A model generated the notes under the pieces. The model saw only the letters and a program-made list of their open reading frames with translations, searched no databases and had not been told where the DNA came from. Positions 2,735-21,194 of a stretch of 21,194 nt of DNA are shown here, piece by piece; position 1 is the first letter of the stretch; the number at the start of each line of letters is the position of its first letter. The DNA is from a virus (taxonomy: Duplodnaviria; Heunggongvirae; Uroviricota; Caudoviricetes), in IMG/VR virus record IMGVR_UViG_2537561991_000022; one strand, given 5' to 3'. The translations under genes were made by a program, and so were the position numbers.

Positions 2735-2738
2735 GGTG
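2731..2738. repeat. Left copy of the 8-bp target-site duplication GCTTGGTG flanking the IS66-family element
   Basis: GCTTGGTG sits immediately outside the GTAAGCG... terminus at 2739; an identical 8-mer is at 5193-5200. Confidence 0.7.
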
Positions 2739-2775
2739 GTAAGCGTGCAGCAAGAACCGTATTGACGGGGATGTG

Positions 2776-4314
2776 TTATTCAGTCGGCAGTGCTACGCGC
2801 CAGGGGAGCAGTTCGCCGACCCGGTTTATCGGCCAGTCGGCTATGACGTCAAGGACATAGCGGAGGTAGCTTTCTGGCTCCACTCCGTTCAGTTTGCACG
2901 TCCCGATCAGGCTGTACAGCAGCGCTCCCCGCTCTCCTCCATGATCCGAACCGAAGAACAGGTAGTTTTTGCGGCCCAGACTGACCATCCGCAACGCATT
3001 TTCAGCGATGTTATTGTCCGCCTCAGCCCAGCCATCATCTGCATAGTACGTCAGCGCCGGCCACTGGTTCAGGGCGTATGCGAACGCTTTCGCCAGTTCT
3101 GAGTGTCGCGACAGGGTTTTCATCTTTTCACGCAGCCAGCTTTCCAGGGATTTCAGCAGCGGTTTCGTTTTCAACTGACGTTCGGCAAGGCGCTGCTCCG
3201 CCGTCATTCCCCTTATCTCTGCCTCGATGGCGTACAGTTCGCCGATCCGTTTCAGCGCTTCCTCCGTCAGGGCTGACGGGGTGCGAACGTGCACATCGTG
3301 GATTTTACGGCGGGCGTGAGCCCAACAGGCGGCTTCCGTTATCCGGCCATCCCGGTACAGCTCGTTGAACCCGGCGTATGCATCCGCCTGCAGTACACCA
3401 CTGAACCCCGCAAGATGGGTCTGCGGATGGATGCCTTTTCTGTCCGGGCTGTAAGCGAACAACACCGCCGGCGCCAGCGTTGACCCGGCGTTACGGTCGT
3501 CACGAACGTAGGTCCATAACCGCCCGGTCTTCGTTTTCTTATTGCCTGGCAACAGCACCGGGACAGGCGTGTCATCAGCATGGAGCTTACCGTCAGTCAG
3601 CACATAGTCCTGAAGCGCTTCTTCCAGCGGTGACAGTAGCCGGCAGCATGCATCCACCCAGCCCGACAGCAGTGAACGACTCAGCTCCACGCCCTGGCGG
3701 CCGTACATTTCAGACTGGCGGTACAGCGGGGTGTGCTCTGCATACTTTGAGATCAGCACGCGGGCCAGCAGCCCCGGTCCTGCGATACCCCGCTCGATGG
3801 GCCGTGAAGGCGCGGGGGCCTGCACGATGGCATCGCACTGAGTACAGGCATGCTTTTCACGTACAGTCCGGATAACCCGGAAGGCGCTGCGCATCAACTC
3901 CAGCTGTTCGGCGGCATCCTCACCCAGATAGCTCAGTGAGCCTCCACATTCCGGGCAGCATGATGCTGCCGGCAGCAGCCGTTTTTCATCGCGGGGGAGT
4001 GATTCGGGGAACGGTTTGCGGGTGCGGGTTTGACGCAGCGGGCGCTGCACGGCCGGGTCGTCAACCCGACCGGTAAGGGTATCACTTTCTTTCTGAAGTG
4101 CCTTCAGGTCAGCTTCCATCTGTGCGATACGACGGGAGACTTTTTCGGAGCGGCTGCCGAAGTTCATCCGGCGCAGCTTATCCAGCTGTGCCTGCAGATG
4201 GTCTATTTCGCGTTCACGCTCGTTCAGCTTTTCCAGCAGGGCACGGTTCAGCGCCTCCTGTTCGGCAAGGAGACGTTTCAGTGCATTGATATCGTCAGGA
4301 AGTGAGCTGCTCAT
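2776..4314 (-). CDS. tnpC: IS66-family transposase TnpC
   Basis: 512-aa ORF with an N-terminal coiled-coil/leucine-zipper-like region ([38 protein letters not shown]) and a CxxC...CxxC cluster, typical of IS66 transposases. Confidence 0.9.
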
Positions 4315-4362
4315 ACCGGGTATATTACCAGGCTCATTCAGCGTCGACCAGGATAAAGAGGC

Positions 4363-4710
4363 TTACAACATAGTCAGGGACGTAAGCAGTCTTTTAGGCT
4401 GCCGCCAGTCGATACCTTCCAGCAGCATCGCCAGCTGTGCCGGTGTGAGGAACACTTTGCCATCCCGGGCTGACGGCCAGGCGAAGCGGCCGCGCTCCAG
4501 CCGTTTGGTCAGCAGACACAGTCCATCGCCGGTAGACCAGAGGAGCTTTACCTGACTGCCATTACGCCCACGGAAGATAAAAACGTGACCTGACATCGGA
4601 TCGTCTTTCAGCGTCGTCTGCACCTTTGCCGCCAGGCCGTTGAAGCCGTTTCTCATATCGGTGATGCCAGCGACCAGCCAGATCTTTGTCCCTGATGGTA
4701 ATGGGATCAA
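4363..4710 (-). CDS. tnpB: IS66-family accessory protein TnpB (Orf2)
   Basis: 115-aa ORF MIPLPSGTKIWLVAGITDMRNGFNGLAAKV... matches the conserved IS66 Orf2 family from memory; sits between tnpA and tnpC. Confidence 0.85.
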   Translation of the reverse strand: MIPLPSGTKIWLVAGITDMRNGFNGLAAKVQTTLKDDPMSGHVFIFRGRNGSQVKLLWSTGDGLCLLTKRLERGRFAWPSARDGKVFLTPAQLAMLLEGIDWRQPKRLLTSLTML

Positions 4711-5111
4711 CGTTTGAGCTCCCGTATCAGCAGGTTCAGGATATTTTCGCTGATGGCACCATTCAGACGGAGTGATCCGTGCCGGAACGTCACTTCACAG
4801 CTGATATTGAGTGATTCAGGTGTCGCAGCAGCTACAGGTTGTGACCGGGGGGAGGTTGTAGGGACAACATCTTCGGCATCAAGTGTTATCGGGAGCAGCT
4901 CAGGCACGTTGTTTTCTGTTGTTGAAGGAGGACGTAGTTTTCCTTCGCGCCAGTACTGGCGCCACTTGAACAGCAAATTATCGTTGATCCCATGCTCACG
5001 AGCGAGTTGCGCTACGGAGATCTCTGGTCGATGCGAGAGTTCAACCATTTTGATTTTGAACTCAACGGGATAATTAGGGCTTTTTTTACGCACTGCGGTT
5101 AATGATTTCAT
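4707..5111 (-). CDS. tnpA: IS66-family accessory protein TnpA (Orf1, HTH)
   Basis: 134-aa ORF; overlaps the tnpB start by 4 nt (ATGA coupling) as in IS66 elements; first gene inside the right inverted repeat. Confidence 0.85.
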   Translation of the reverse strand: MKSLTAVRKKSPNYPVEFKIKMVELSHRPEISVAQLAREHGINDNLLFKWRQYWREGKLRPPSTTENNVPELLPITLDAEDVVPTTSPRSQPVAAATPESLNISCEVTFRHGSLRLNGAISENILNLLIRELKR

Positions 5112-5192
5112 GGATAGCGTCCACCATATTTGGTGTCCACTATTCTCTCAGGAATTTCAGGATCTGCCAGACGGTGCTGAGACGACGCTTAC

Positions 5193-5200
5193 GCTTGGTG
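5193..5200. repeat. Right copy of the 8-bp target-site duplication GCTTGGTG
   Basis: Identical to 2731-2738, immediately outside the IS terminus ...gacgacgcttac (5192). Confidence 0.7.
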
Positions 5201-9346: not shown

Positions 9347-9479
9347 TTTTTGGGACTCCTGGCTGATTAAGTATGTCGATAAGGCGTTTCCATCCGTCAC
9401 GTAATTTACGGGTGATTCGTTCAAGTAAAGATTCGGAAGGGCAGCCAGCAACAGGCCACCCTGCAATGGCATATTGCAT
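9315..9479 (-). CDS. cIII: Lambda CIII (FtsH/HflB inhibitor, stabilises CII)
   Basis: Hand-translated 54-aa [57 protein letters not shown] (below the 60-aa cut-off of the ORF track); matches lambda CIII. Confidence 0.85.
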   Translation of the reverse strand: MQYAIAGWPVAGCPSESLLERITRKLRDGWKRLIDILNQPGVPKNGSNNYGYPD

Positions 9480-9551
9480 GGTGTGCTCCTTATTTATACA
9501 TAACGAAAAACGCCTCGAGTGAAGCGTAATTGGTATGCGGTAACGCCGCGC

Positions 9552-13459: not shown

Positions 13460-14292
13460 ATGACAAATACAGCAAAAATACTCAACTTCGGCAGAGGTAA
13501 CTTTGCCGGACAGGAGCGTAATGTGGCAGATCTCGATGATGGTTACGCCAGACTATCAAATATGCTGCTTGAGGCTTATTCAGGCGCAGATCTGACCAAG
13601 CGACAGTTTAAAGTGCTGCTTGCCATTCTGCGTAAAACCTATGGGTGGAATAAACCAATGGACAGAATCACCGATTCTCAACTTAGCGAGATTACAAAGT
13701 TACCTGTCAAACGGTGCAATGAAGCCAAGTTAGAACTCGTCAGAATGAATATTATCAAGCAGCAAGGCGGCATGTTTGGACCAAATAAAAACATCTCAGA
13801 ATGGTGTATCCCTCAAAACAGGGGAACACAAAAGACACTAATACAAAAGAAAATAGAAAAGATTATTCGTCAGAGAATTCTGGCGAATCCTCTGACCAGC
13901 CAGAAAACGACCTTTCTGTGGTGAAACCTGATGCTGCAATTCAGAGCGGCAGCAAATGGGGGACAGCAGAAGACCTGACCGCCGCAGAGTGGATGTTTGA
14001 CATGGTGAAGACTATCGCGCCATCAGCCAGAAAACCGAATTTTGCAGGGTGGGCTAACGATATCCGCCTGATGCGTGAACGTGACGGACGTAACCACCGC
14101 GATATGTGTGTGCTGTTCCGCTGGGCCTGCCAGGACAACTTCTGGTCCGGTAATGTGCTGAGCCCGGCCAAACTCCGCGACAAGTGGACCCAGCTCGAAA
14201 TCAACCGTAACAAGCAACAGGCAGTCGTGACAGCCAGCAAACCAAAACTCGACCTGACAAACACAGACTGGATTTACGGGGTGGATTTATGA
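13460..14292 (+). pseudogene. O: Replication initiator O, disrupted by a frameshift inside the origin iteron region
   Basis: N-terminal 119 aa (MTNTAKILNFGRGNFAGQERNVADLDDGYARL...ISEWCIPQN) in one frame and the C-terminal ~162 aa (YPSKQGNTKDTNTKENRKDYSSENSGESSDQPENDLSVVKPDAAIQSG...WIYGVDL) in another; frames meet at 13807-13819. Confidence 0.85.
13808..13825. repeat. Single remaining ori-lambda iteron (ATCCCTCAAAACAGGGGA) followed by the AT-rich origin segment
   Basis: One copy of the iteron with internal dyad TCCC...GGGA; lambda as I remember it has four tandem copies here. Confidence 0.6.
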
Positions 14293-16661: not shown

Positions 16662-17265
16662 ACCAGCGCGAAGACGATGTAAAAACGATGAATGTCGGGA
16701 ATGGTTTCACCCTGCATTCGCTAATCAGTGGTGGTGCTCTCCAGAGTGTGGAACCAAGATAGCACTCGAACGACGAAGTAAAGAACGCGAAAAAGCGGAA
16801 AAAGCAGCAGAGAAGAAACGACGACGAGAGGAGCAGAAACAGAAAGATAAACTTAAGATTCGAAAACTCGCCTTAAAGCCCCGCAGTTACTGGATTAAAC
16901 AAGCCCAACAAGCCGTAAACGCCTTCATCAGAGAAAGAGACCGCGACTTACCATGTATCTCGTGCGGAACGCTCACGTCTGCTCAGTGGGATGCCGGACA
17001 TTACCGGACAACTGCTGCGGCACCTCAACTCCGATTTGATGAACGCAATATTCACAAGCAATACGTGGTGTGCAACCAGCACAAAAGCGGAAATCTCGCT
17101 CCGTATCGCGTCGAACTGATTAGCCGCATCAGGCAGGAAGCAGTAGACGAAATCGAATCAAACCATAACCGCCATCGCTGGACTGTCGAAGAGTGCAAGG
17201 CGATCAAGGCAGAGTACCAACAGAAACTCAAAGACCTGCGAAACAGCAGAAGTGAGGCTGCATGA
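16651..17265 (+). CDS. ninG: NinG (Rap, structure-specific recombination endonuclease)
   Basis: 204-aa translation [69 protein letters not shown]... matches lambda NinG. Confidence 0.9.
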
Positions 17266-17927
17266 ATATCTACGAAAGAATTGATGGCAGCAAATACCGA
17301 AATATTTGGGTAGCTGGCGACCTGCACGGATGCTACACGAACCTGATGAACAAACTGGATACGATTGGATTCGACACCAAAAAAGACCTGCTCATCTCGG
17401 TTGGCGATTTGGTTGATCGCGGTACAGAGAACGTCGAATGTCTGGAATTAATCACATTCCCCTGGTTCAGAGCTGTGCGTGGAAACCATGAGCAAATGAT
17501 GATTGATGGCTTATCAGAGCGTGGAAACGTTAATCACTGGCTGCTTAATGGCGGTGGCTGGTTCTTTAATCTCGATTACGACAAAGAGACTCTGGCTAAA
17601 GTTCTTGCCCATAAAGCAGAAGAACTTCCGTTAATCATCGAACTGGTGAGCAAAGATAAAAAATATGTCATTTGCCACGCCGATTATCCTTGTGATAAAT
17701 ACGAGTTTGGAAAGCCAGTTGATCATCAGCAGGTAATCTGGAACCGCGAACGAATCAGCAACTCACAAGACGGGATCGTGAAAGAAATCAAAGGCGCGGA
17801 CACGTTCATCTTTGGTCATACGCCAGCAGTGAAACCACTCAAATTTGCCAACCAGATGTATATCGATACTGGCGCAGTGTTCTGCGGAAACCTCACATTG
17901 ATTCAGGTACAGGGAGAAGGCGCATGA
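17262..17927 (+). CDS. ninI: NinI serine/threonine protein phosphatase (lambda-PPase, Orf221)
   Basis: 221-aa translation with metallophosphatase motifs GDLHG, GDLVDRG, GNHE; matches lambda Orf221. Start overlaps the ninG stop, so no ninH lies between them. Confidence 0.9.
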
Positions 17928-18013
17928 GACTCGAAAGCGTAGCTAAATTTCATTCGCCAAAAAGCCCGATGATGAGCGACTCACTACTGGCCACAGTTTA
18001 TTGGTTTTCGTAA
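17924..18013 (+). pseudogene. Q: Truncated remnant of lambda Q antiterminator (~24 matching codons, then foreign sequence)
   Basis: Frame [20 protein letters not shown]... matches the lambda Q N-terminus, then runs into a stop at 18011-18013; downstream DNA is AT-rich and non-lambda. Confidence 0.7.
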
Positions 18014-18043
18014 CTGAGTCATTTTATTATTTTATTGCAACTT

Positions 18044-19102
18044 TTAATCTTTTATAGTGCGAAATAAATGGAGCTGGCATTCATTTCGCACTTTATGTTT
18101 TTGTTTGGACTTATTGTTATTTTGTATTGAATTCAATTCAGTTAAAAAAAGAAAGGTGATTGCTCCATTTATAAATGAATAGTCATCCCCTGTCTTGAAT
18201 TCTGATGTTACTTTATTAAATGCTAGTGTGAAGGCTACAGGTGCATACCCAATTGTTGCGCCAACTTGATATTCATCAACAGTTTTGTTTAGCGATACTG
18301 TTGTTTGTTTCGTCTGTATTGTTTTTCCTTCGAGAGTATAGTTGCGATTGACATCTCGTCTTTCCATACCTGCAAAAATCTTGTATTTGAATCCGCTTGT
18401 ATCGGACATATGCATTAAACCACGGGGAGCCAGCAGACCAAAGCCATTATCCGAATTGAAGGTTTTATCATTACCAATGGCAATGGTTGCGCCATATGCT
18501 ACATATTGAAATAAGTTTCCAGTAACAGCAGAAACTTCAGGGTATAATCCAACATTAGCACCTAAAATATCCATACTTGGTGTCATGGATAGCATCCCTT
18601 TTACAGTATAACCGTAGCGATTCTCTATTTGATCATCCCATGCATGATATTTTTCTGCCCCAATAATCTCATGAGCTTTATTTTGTACTTTCTGACCGCC
18701 TGCGTCGGGGCCAACAACACCTATGTCAGTACCTAATCGATAGCGAATCCAGTCATTCGCAAGGGAGCTCCATTCAATACCAGTGTGAGTGTATGCACTA
18801 AAAGCTCTGTCCCCAGTTACAGCTGTGTTGTGTCTTTTATTACTGCCTGATGGAGAGTAAATATCTTGCGCAATATGGAGAGATAATTGGCTCGAGTCTG
18901 AGATATCGTGGCTATATCCCAGAAATAAGCCTTGTGAGTAATCATCTCTGTTTTCATGTTTATTGCCATAAATATCATTAAGTATTGGTTGAAACTTCCC
19001 TGCATCATCATTTGCTAATGATAATGCAAGGCTGTTCGCGATAGCTGAACACGTGGTAAATGACAGAGCAATAAAGACGCCAGCGATGACACTTTTTTTC
19101 AT
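18044..19102 (-). CDS. lpxR: LpxR-like outer-membrane lipid A 3'-O-deacylase (beta-barrel) with a 33-aa C-terminal extension
   Basis: Signal peptide MKKSVIAGVFIALSFTTCSAIA; mature-numbered N9, D10, S34 and H122 coincide with the catalytic residues I remember for Salmonella LpxR; the homologous part ends ...GAITFLF at residue 319; good SD (AAGGAAG). Confidence 0.7.
   Translation of the reverse strand: MKKSVIAGVFIALSFTTCSAIANSLALSLANDDAGKFQPILNDIYGNKHENRDDYSQGLFLGYSHDISDSSQLSLHIAQDIYSPSGSNKRHNTAVTGDRAFSAYTHTGIEWSSLANDWIRYRLGTDIGVVGPDAGGQKVQNKAHEIIGAEKYHAWDDQIENRYGYTVKGMLSMTPSMDILGANVGLYPEVSAVTGNLFQYVAYGATIAIGNDKTFNSDNGFGLLAPRGLMHMSDTSGFKYKIFAGMERRDVNRNYTLEGKTIQTKQTTVSLNKTVDEYQVGATIGYAPVAFTLAFNKVTSEFKTGDDYSFINGAITFLFLTELNSIQNNNKSKQKHKVRNECQLHLFRTIKD
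18057..18108 (+). terminator. Strong hairpin with downstream T-rich tract (plus-strand intrinsic terminator candidate)
   Basis: Perfect 9-bp stem gtgcgaaat/atttcgcac (18057-18065 / 18083-18091) with inner aatg/catt pairing, then tttatgtttttgtttgg. Lies inside the 3' extension of the LpxR-like ORF. Confidence 0.5.
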
Positions 19103-19577
19103 ATGTTATTGTCTTCCTTTTTTTTGAATGGTGCGCGTATTTTACATACATGAGTTTGTAATACAAGGTGCGTAATCAATATGATGTTTTATAATTGCGT
19201 GAGACAATTGATTTATTTGTTTTTTATTGCGGTTTTTATTATCTTTTAATGTAACGGTGTTTTTATTAAGTGTGTTTGCGTGGTGTTTTATGTTTTTTAT
19301 AATTTTTATTTTATTAAATTTAAATGCATTAGTAATGGCTATTCTATATAGCAATATAAGAACTGTTACAAAAAAAGGGGGGGCAATTACAGGTAGTTAT
19401 GGATGATGAGTGAAACAGATATTGGAGAACCGGGGAATGAATGATGTCTGAGTCTTATATATCAGAACTCCTTCGCTGTCGCTGGGGGCTCCTGTGCTTA
19501 TGTCGTTTCCCCGATTCGGTTTTGAACGATTACCGAATGTTGAAGAATTATGCCAAAATATAGAAAGGATTTACTGC

Positions 19578-20267
19578 ATGAATACCCAATATTTACAGTA
19601 TGTTCGTGAGCAACTTATGGCAGCTACTGCTGACTTGAACGGAGCAACGAAAGGCCAGCTCGAAGCCTGGCAGGAGCATGCACAATTTGATACTGGTACA
19701 TACAAACGAAAGAAGCCGCGCATTCTGGATGTGGTAACTGGCAAGATGATTACGCTGGATAATACGCCGACTTCCGGTAAGCAGTCGTACGCAAAAGGTT
19801 CATCCATTGCTTTGGTCAGCCCGGTTGAATTCTCAACCTCTTCATGGCGCCGCGCGGTTTTGTCTCTCGATGAACATCAGAAAGCATGGTTGCTTTGGTG
19901 TTACAGCGAAAGCGTTCGATGGGGGCATCAGGTCACCATAACGCAATGGGCATGGAGCGAGTTTAAAGATTTGTTAAGTAACAGAAAAATTGCAGGTAAG
20001 ACACTGGATCGCCTGAAGACGTTAATCTGGCTGGCTGCACAGGATGTGAAGAGCGAACTTGCAGGGCGTGAGGCCTATGAATACCAGACACTGGCATCAT
20101 TGGTGGGAGTGACAACAAAAAACTGGTCCGAGACATTTACTGAACGCTGGGTTGCAATGAAGCACATTTTTCTACAGCTTGATAGTGATGCTTTATTGCT
20201 TGTGACGAGAACACGTTCAAAACAAAAGGCAGCATTTTTACAGCAAAATATTGCAAAACTGGATTAA
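19578..20267 (+). CDS. Putative Q-family late-gene antiterminator (long phage-82/QuuQ-type), tentative; the ORF also opens upstream at 19494
   Basis: 229-aa frame from MNTQYLQYVREQL... with AAAGGA SD; sits after the nin region and is followed by a promoter-like element and short terminator as expected for Q-pR'-tR'. Family assignment is from gene context and weak recall only. Confidence 0.4.
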   Translation: MNTQYLQYVREQLMAATADLNGATKGQLEAWQEHAQFDTGTYKRKKPRILDVVTGKMITLDNTPTSGKQSYAKGSSIALVSPVEFSTSSWRRAVLSLDEHQKAWLLWCYSESVRWGHQVTITQWAWSEFKDLLSNRKIAGKTLDRLKTLIWLAAQDVKSELAGREAYEYQTLASLVGVTTKNWSETFTERWVAMKHIFLQLDSDALLLVTRTRSKQKAAFLQQNIAKLD

Positions 20268-20280
20268 AAGCCATATACTT
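20251..20280 (+). promoter_or_regulatory. Candidate sigma-70 promoter at the 3' end of the Q-like gene (pR'-like)
   Basis: -35 TTGCAA (20251-20256), 18-bp spacer, -10 TATACT (20275-20280); predicted start about 35 nt upstream of the terminator. Confidence 0.3.
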
Positions 20281-20312
20281 CATGCAAATTTGGTATGTTG
20301 TAAAAAATGTAT

Positions 20313-20340
20313 AAACCCGCTGCCGAGTGGGTTTTTTTTA
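20313..20340 (+). terminator. Intrinsic terminator (tR'-like) downstream of the Q-like gene
   Basis: Stem aaaccc/gggttt (20313-20318 / 20329-20334), 10-nt loop, followed by a T-run to 20339. Confidence 0.5.
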
Positions 20341-20436
20341 TGCCCTGAGTTGTACTTGTACGGTAAACATGCTGGCTGCTATGTAATAGAGTTTTTTTAG
20401 CCTGTAACCTCTTGACGGCATTGAATTGCTTTTGTT

Positions 20437-20955
20437 ATGAGTTGTAAGCCAATGTTATCATCTTGTATTGGGGTGGTTATGAAGGATGGTGCGCTGCTCA
20501 GGAGTTCTTCACTTTTTATTGCCTACATGGGATGCCTTGGATGGGGGAGTGCTTATTTCTATGGATGGGGTACTTCTTTTTACTACGGCTTCCCATGGTG
20601 GATTGTAGGTGCAGGTGTTGATGATGTTGCCAGAAGTTTATTTTTTGCAGTTATCGTCATTGCTATATTTCTTATCGGTTGGGGTATTGGTGTTGTATTC
20701 TTTTTCGCAGTGAAAAGAAAACATTCTATGCAAGAGCTAAATGTATTTCGCCTTTATTTTGCTGTGGAATTATTGTTTGTGCCGGCAATTATTGAGTTTT
20801 CTATATTGAGACAGAAGATTCAGGTACCTCTTTTGCTACTGTCAGCAGCGATTGCGCTGGCGGTTACAATTTCGATAAGATCTTATGGGCGATTTTTATC
20901 GGTATCATGCTTCTATGATAAGCCATTTATAAAAAACATTTTTTTGAGATTGTGA
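20437..20955 (+). CDS. Hypothetical polytopic membrane protein (Gly/aromatic-rich TM segments); likely start at 20479
   Basis: ORF with about four hydrophobic segments (e.g. WWIVGAGV, LFFAVIVIAIFLIGWGIGVVFFFAV, LLLLSAAIALAVTISI); AT-rich; stop TGA overlaps the next gene's ATG (TGATG). Confidence 0.5.
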   Translation: MSCKPMLSSCIGVVMKDGALLRSSSLFIAYMGCLGWGSAYFYGWGTSFYYGFPWWIVGAGVDDVARSLFFAVIVIAIFLIGWGIGVVFFFAVKRKHSMQELNVFRLYFAVELLFVPAIIEFSILRQKIQVPLLLLSAAIALAVTISIRSYGRFLSVSCFYDKPFIKNIFLRL

Positions 20956-21194
20956 TGATTGCTTTTGTGGCATATTTTTGGCTTTTTTCATTTCTGACAG
21001 GATATTACAAACCACAGTTTAAGAAAGAATATGAAATGATTAATTATAATGATGGTTGGTATTATGTTCTTGCTCGTTATGATAATTGTCTGGTTTTGTC
21101 TACTTCTTTCAATGCAGGTAGTAAAAGGTTTGTCATTTATCAATCAGCACAAGATAAGAATCTTCAGGTTGATATTGTAAGGACCAGAATTTAA
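20952..21194 (+). CDS. Hypothetical small membrane-anchored protein (one N-terminal TM plus ~55-aa soluble domain)
   Basis: 80-aa ORF MMIAFVAYFWLFSFLTGYY..., coupled to the upstream gene; stop codon is the last three bases of the window. Confidence 0.45.
   Translation: MMIAFVAYFWLFSFLTGYYKPQFKKEYEMINYNDGWYYVLARYDNCLVLSTSFNAGSKRFVIYQSAQDKNLQVDIVRTRI

Follow-up and report, generated by a model that had tools for sequence, protein, structure and literature searches.

The lpxR gene of Salmonella lies at a chromosomal locus, and the Salmonella Typhimurium enzyme was described by Reynolds et al. in 2006 and Rutten et al. in 2009. In the mechanism of Rutten et al., as summarised in PMC6260217, H122 activates the hydrolytic water, and the scissile ester is polarised by a Ca2+ ion whose ligands are N9, D10 and T34. 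For Yersinia enterocolitica, PMC3486919 reports 3'-O-deacylation of lipid A by LpxR at 37 °C.

In EHEC, Ogawa et al. (2018, Cell Microbiol 20:e12806), as summarised in PMC6863877, observed less lipid A deacylation in an lpxR mutant of O157:H7 Sakai; lpxR-dependent deacylation dampened the TLR4 response in the same strain, according to the citation of that work in PMC6863877. That prophage lpxR is a genuine lysogenic-conversion function, with under-acylated lipid A dampening TLR4 signalling, has thus already been published. EHEC lpxR is activated by Pch and Ler together with the genes of the LEE (locus of enterocyte effacement) (PMC6393859). PMC6863877 treats the EHEC protein, under the name MC001, as a protective antigen; it is conserved, with 218 of 224 EHEC genomes carrying it, and when it was tested as a vaccine, immunisation reduced colonisation by EHEC. 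LpxR has also been put forward as an antigen for an EHEC vaccine. The gene, its module, the deacylase function and the regulation in EHEC are therefore already known, routinely annotated and experimentally studied.

The DNA analysed here, referred to as the window, is a stretch of 21,194 nucleotides (IMG/VR virus record IMGVR_UViG_2537561991_000022) comprising a lambdoid prophage that adjoins ybhC. Its sequence agrees at every position (100% identity) with NCBI contig ADUO01000201.1, which belongs to assembly GCA_000188775.2 of E. coli E128010, an EPEC control strain that is eae-positive with intimin beta. Prophages next to ybhC in O111:H2, O103:H2, O121 and other strains match 88% of the window at 99.9% identity. 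We have little doubt that the ORF described below is the lpxR moron of EPEC/EHEC lambdoid prophages and that its unusual C-terminal tail most likely comes from assembly errors.

Assignment of the ORF to the LpxR family

The ORF listing of the window contains a minus-strand ORF of 352 aa with an ATG start, spanning 18044..19102. A sequence-only reading of the same DNA had described an ORF of this size with a signal peptide, and had lined up N9, D10, S34 and H122 with the LpxR active site. Its coordinates proved exact, and the signal features are legible in the sequence. The signal peptide has a KK n-region, a hydrophobic core and a c-region with an A-x-A cleavage motif, the cleavage site falling between MKKSVIAGVFIALSFTTCSAIA and NS.

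The Pfam LpxR profile (PF09982) scored 136.3 bits against a gathering score of 26, ORF residues 10-317 aligning with model positions 2-319 of 323. A search of NCBIfam with the protein returned no match and was uninformative, since that collection holds no matching LpxR model. Salmonella LpxR (3FID_A) was the single PDB sequence matched, with E=1.6e-151. The alignment pairs residues 24-319 with chain residues 2-296, with 218 of 296 positions identical (73.6%) and one 1-residue gap. As chain residue 2 of 3FID aligns to S24, mature numbering equals precursor numbering minus 22, and the EHEC protein has been numbered with the identical offset of 22 (PMC6863877).

In the recomputed alignment, N31, D32, D33 and S56 correspond to N9, D10, D11 and T34 of 3FID, and K89, Q140, H144 and E150 to K67, Q118, H122 and E128. 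The residues N31, D32, S56 and H144 are thus those picked out by the sequence-only reading, which had also suggested alignment to a characterised LpxR as a check; against 3FID the catalytic residues are kept. Mature position 34 is Ser in the window protein and Thr in the Salmonella enzyme, a conservative difference found in all EHEC copies. The corresponding residues listed for the 319-aa EHEC protein, in mature and precursor numbering, are N9/31, D10/32, T/S34/56, Q118/140, H122/144 and E128/150 (PMC6863877).

Judged by its sequence, the 352-aa ORF is a genuine LpxR family member. From the 73.6% identity to 3FID, it is predicted to form a 12-stranded outer-membrane beta-barrel exported by the Sec pathway.

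Retention of all eight active-site and substrate-binding residues at this level of identity argues against a barrel of the LpxR fold with another primary role, as a phage-exclusion surface protein or an adhesin-like antigen, in which the catalytic residues would be a legacy of recent ancestry. The EHEC protein is immunogenic and surface-exposed, and immunisation with it cuts colonisation (PMC6863877), as would suit such a role, and the activity of Salmonella LpxR in its native membrane is described as rather low (PMC6260217); but the EHEC orthologue is reported to deacylate lipid A in vivo, the modification being lost in an lpxR mutant (Ogawa et al. 2018, as cited in PMC6863877 and PMC6393859). 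We consider a different primary role highly improbable, and take the ORF to encode a lipid A deacylase.

The prophage module and its transcription signals

The features of the locus are collected in Table 1.

Table 1. Coordinates of features in and around lpxR in the window.
Feature	Position	Strand	Basis
lpxR coding sequence proper, codons 1-319	18146..19102	-	Pfam, 3FID, comparison with WP_000750155.1
Signal peptide, residues 1-22 (MKKSVIAGVFIALSFTTCSAIA), mature start N23	19037..19102	-	Sequence, 3FID start, offset in PMC6863877
Shine-Dalgarno AGGAAG, 10 nt 5' of ATG	19113..19118	-	Ribosome binding site annotated equivalently in phage 434
1-base insertion (+ strand A; gene sense T)	18152	.	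Alignment; absent in 620/620 carrier genomes
Read-through tail, 33 codons (LTELNSIQNNNKSKQKHKVRNECQLHLFRTIKD) + stop	18044..18145	-	3' untranslated DNA in other genomes
15-bp stem-loop, ~50 nt beyond native stop	18056..18092	.	Folding
Upstream intergenic region, very AT-rich, expected lpxR promoter site	19103..19440	-	Base composition
lambda-type Q remnant, 29 codons, ~first 24 match lambda; module left edge	17924..18013	+	
ylcG-family small ORF (PF26818)	19441..19563	+	Annotations
Q82-type late antiterminator Q, PF06323, 306 bits	19578..20267	+	Profile match, annotations
ninI serine/threonine phosphatase, last lambda-like early gene before module	17262..17927	+	

The gene order is ninG, ninI, a Q remnant, lpxR on the opposite strand, ylcG and a Q82-type Q. 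Homology to lambda stops at about 17994, 71 nt into Q, and RefSeq genomes label the remnant an incomplete antitermination protein, while the phage 434 record calls it an N-terminal Q fragment. The GC content is 0.34-0.40 at 18001-19500 compared with about 0.45-0.53 in the phage early genes to the left. Because the lambda homology ends within Q, the sequence-only reading was right that a foreign AT-rich module replaced the Q-proximal region. The PF06323 protein is the functional Q and was brought in with the module.

The description of lpxR as phage cargo also stands. Its GC content, orientation, position and patchy presence are those of a moron, although the promoter itself was not located. 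The gene is missing from lambda and from most lambdoid phages, and is present in phage 434. Of 5426 complete E. coli genomes, 620 have its 3' end, and in every case it is chromosomal. Upstream of lpxR, a 70-aa low-complexity ORF at 19142-19354 on the minus strand is a gene in the draft annotation and is absent from the RefSeq and phage 434 annotations; it is probably spurious.

In a consensus promoter scan of 17850-19650, promoter-like sites did not exceed the number in shuffled sequence, and the intergenic region 19103..19440 holds one weak consensus match, at 19369-19341. A pattern-based terminator scan of the same interval called none, the hairpin at 18056-18092 failing the loop and tail rules of the scanner. 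This hairpin was spotted by eye and confirmed by folding, with -16.7 kcal/mol (z = -3.25) on the + strand. In the lpxR sense it folds with -19.1 kcal/mol (z = -5.5) and is followed by no U tract. On the + strand the U-rich tract TTTATGTTTTTGTTTGG comes after it, so that the element resembles an intrinsic terminator of rightward phage transcription. From its sequence it looks like a terminator against rightward phage transcription entering lpxR antisense. At the gathering thresholds of Rfam, the only family found in the whole window was the lambda cIII thermoregulator (RF01804, 88.5 bits) at 9434-9492 on the minus strand, and none was found near lpxR.

Given its opposite orientation and its own AT-rich upstream region, lpxR would be expected to be expressed from the lysogen, independently of the early and late phage operons. 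E128010 is eae-positive, which makes Pch/Ler-type regulation plausible there too, by analogy with EHEC.

A mechanism can be proposed on these grounds. The prophage beside ybhC in E128010 would carry lpxR as a moron, an accessory gene equipped with transcription signals of its own. Oriented opposite to the early-right operon, lpxR would be transcribed from the lysogen under Pch/Ler control as in EHEC. Its product would be exported by means of the 22-residue signal peptide and would then form a 12-stranded barrel in the outer membrane, where it would hydrolyse the lipid A 3'-acyloxyacyl ester in a Ca2+-dependent reaction. His122 (H144 here) would activate water, while Ca2+ on Asn9, Asp10 and Thr/Ser34 (N31, D32 and S56) would polarise the scissile ester. 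Under-acylated lipid A with weaker TLR4 stimulation would be the outcome. The real E128010 protein would be an ordinary 319-aa LpxR with an N112S polymorphism. We infer by analogy that activity and regulation in E128010 are the same as for the EHEC copy, which is about 99% identical; remodelling of lipid A has been reported for near-identical copies in other strains.

Other parts of the prophage differ from its relatives. A 2.45-kb IS66-family element at 2738-5193, just downstream of xis and with a GC content of 0.55-0.61, is absent from three reference prophages that are otherwise 99.9% identical. Its minus-strand ORFs match HTH_Tnp_1 (134 aa), TnpB_IS66 (115 aa) and DDE_Tnp_IS66 (512 aa). 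In the lambda-type ori within gene O (13807-13823), 67 bp are missing, corresponding to three of the four gpO-binding iterons. Both endpoints of this deletion lie in a direct repeat, TATCCCTCAAAAC, shared by iterons 1 and 4, and the loss frameshifts O into ORFs of 154 aa and 123 aa. Either the prophage is replication-incompetent or the repeats were collapsed in assembly. At 1357, in the ybhC-int intergenic (attL) region, a private 1-base deletion in an A run relative to three complete genomes is a homopolymer-length difference consistent with draft sequencing error.

Four private transitions (17063, 17099, 18768 and 18812) lie within 1.75 kb in ninG and lpxR, the other ~17 kb being without private substitution. 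The change at 18768 gives N112S, and S112 is present in a few draft isolates. One possible origin of the cluster at 17063-18812 is a short recombined patch derived from an allele that the complete genomes do not contain.

To the right of Q, at 20437-21194, lies a membrane-protein gene that measures 744 bp in other strains (WP_001302581.1). Here, the lack of an A near 20931 splits it into two ORFs, 20437-20955 and 20952 onwards. The gene is frameshifted compared with two of three references; in O111:H2 strain 12A it is likewise annotated as 'frameshifted', and since the lesion is identical there, it is a shared, real mutation. A 2026 preprint places the Hfq-binding prophage sRNAs PasD1/PasD2 within 10 kb of LpxR and Q in more than 98% of their occurrences, usually beside the holin/lysozyme operon. 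The Q family is PF03589 in that preprint and PF06323 in the window. From this proximity, a PasD gene may lie at the end of the window (~20268-21194) or just to its right.

The frameshift at the 3' end of lpxR

Alignment with O55:H7 DEC5A and phage 434 revealed four 1-base insertions within 47 bp, at 18152, 18125, 18115 and 18106. The first lies three codons 5' of the native stop and changes ACC TTC TTT TTT TAA to ACC TTT CTT TTT TTA ACT. It abolishes the stop at 18144-18142 and thereby produces F318L and a tail of 33 residues (LTELNSIQNNNKSKQKHKVRNECQLHLFRTIKD). The other three insertions fall inside the tail stretch, 18044..18145. Codons 1-317 specify the sequence of WP_000750155.1 except for N112S, and codon 318 is Leu rather than Phe. 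The length of 352 aa given in the sequence-only reading is accordingly correct for the ORF as deposited. It does not describe the native gene, which encodes 319 aa, the last 33 codons lying outside the gene in other genomes.

The tail is rich in lysine and asparagine. The native protein ends in ...GAITFFF, an aromatic beta-signal that is also present in Salmonella; in the window this end is internal, reading ...ITFLF followed by 33 residues. As deposited, the protein therefore lacks a terminal aromatic beta-signal, which returns once the single inserted base is removed. Single-sequence AlphaFold2 prediction of the 352-aa protein gave a nonsensical helical model with a mean pLDDT of 28.6, unfit for judging the tail.

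Across all 620 carrier genomes, the best match to 18040-18170 was identical at 127 of 131 positions, the four differences being the four insertions. Within a collection of 15 billion proteins, no other assembly showed the insertions. There, a single contig (ADUO01000201.1 of E128010) encodes the 352-aa protein, compared with at least 1000 contigs for the 319-aa form. The 'repaired' protein, consisting of residues 1-317 with S112 and the FF end, exists exactly, under four NCBI accessions and on at least three contigs or assemblies. An S112 allele with a normal stop thus circulates. A T7 run before the stop was considered as a programmed slippery site and rejected, because the insertion lies outside the run and the extended frame is found in no other genome.

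Against three complete genomes, the window shows nine private differences in ~18.7 kb. That four of these nine should fall within 47 bp has a chance probability of ~1e-8. Each inserted base, moreover, repeats the base of a run of at least two bases located one base upstream on the + strand (runs T5, TT, T4 and A7). With the inserted base in brackets, the + strand contexts are T5-G-TT[T], TT-A-T[T], T4-G-[T] and A7-G-AA[A]. An inserted base that echoes a nearby upstream run is the signature of pyrosequencing phasing (incomplete-extension) errors, and pyrosequencing was widely used for draft genomes in 2010-2011. No mention of the assembly accession ADUO was found in the literature searched. We judge that the four insertions are probably sequencing or assembly errors of the 2011 draft.

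Should the insertions be real, E128010 would make a LpxR with F318L, a 33-residue basic tail and an internal beta-signal. The deposited sequence does read this way, and genuine private SNPs lie nearby; since the S112 allele is found elsewhere, the change at 18768 is real and the local divergence is not wholly an artefact. The prophage also carries further lesions, namely the IS66-family element, the ori deletion splitting O and the frameshifted membrane-protein gene after Q, so that a true lesion in lpxR would not be out of character. Nevertheless, four independent +1 events in 47 bp are very unlikely (~1e-8), all four echo the base of a nearby upstream homopolymer, none is found in the 620 complete genomes or in any other assembly of the 15-billion-protein collection, and the sister S112 allele has a normal stop. 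Real insertions are therefore an unlikely explanation, at perhaps a third of the weight we give to draft errors.

The consequences of a real frameshift could go either way. Outer-membrane assembly could be compromised; BAM-dependent assembly might fail, leaving a young pseudogene. The stem-loop at 18056-18092 lies within the extension, and if it marked the 3' end of the mRNA, the extended frame would have no stop codon; conceivably the product of such a stopless message would be tmRNA-tagged and degraded. On the other hand, the barrel might assemble with activity kept. The N- and C-termini of a barrel with the 3FID fold are periplasmic, which would place the tail in the periplasm. OmpA-type barrels with C-terminal periplasmic domains do assemble, so loss of LpxR function would not be certain.

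Under the preferred reading of draft errors, the GenBank record EFZ44856.1 / WP_000750159.1 ('systemic factor protein A', 352 aa) is most likely an ordinary 319-aa LpxR with a spurious read-through tail. The 352-aa E128010 record should not be treated as a variant form. If the frameshift were true, it would represent either a freshly inactivated lipid A deacylase, in which case a classic EPEC strain has lost an immune-evasion function, or a C-terminal extension that is tolerated and bears on how strictly BAM requires a terminal aromatic residue.

Comparison with described LpxR systems

One close relative is the EHEC/EPEC LpxR, named 'lipid A deacylase LpxR family protein' in RefSeq (319 aa, WP_000750155.1). 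It is identical to the window protein at 317 of 319 residues, the differences being N112S and F318L. The module order (ninI, Q', lpxR, ylcG, Q) is identical, and the module with its upstream region shares 99.5-99.6% DNA identity, including with O157:H7 and O55:H7 strains. The EHEC/EPEC protein has a normal end, whereas the window copy adds the 33-residue C-terminal extension from a private frameshift.

Phage 434 (OL657226) was the only one of 50,697 phage records to have lpxR, with 98.9% DNA and 99.4% protein identity. Its gene, CPT_434_65, is annotated as 'outer membrane beta-barrel lipid A deacylase'. The gene order is shared, and the 98.9% DNA identity extends across 17900-19500. The reading frame is the normal one of 319 aa, and 8 bp are missing from the downstream spacer. 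Phage 434 is a viable isolate, whereas the prophage in the window bears an IS element and an ori deletion.

Salmonella Typhimurium LpxR (3FID) has N9, D10, D11, K67, Q118, H122 and E128 in common with the window protein, T34 being replaced by Ser. By homology, the two would share the barrel and the Ca2+-dependent 3'-O-deacylase mechanism. The Salmonella protein has no C-terminal extension, in contrast to the window copy, which is extended and prophage-borne.

Y. enterocolitica LpxR/SfpA ('systemic factor protein A') belongs to the same Pfam family. The GenBank name of EFZ44856.1 was transferred from SfpA. According to the literature, the Yersinia gene is chromosomal and temperature-regulated, unlike the prophage copy described here.
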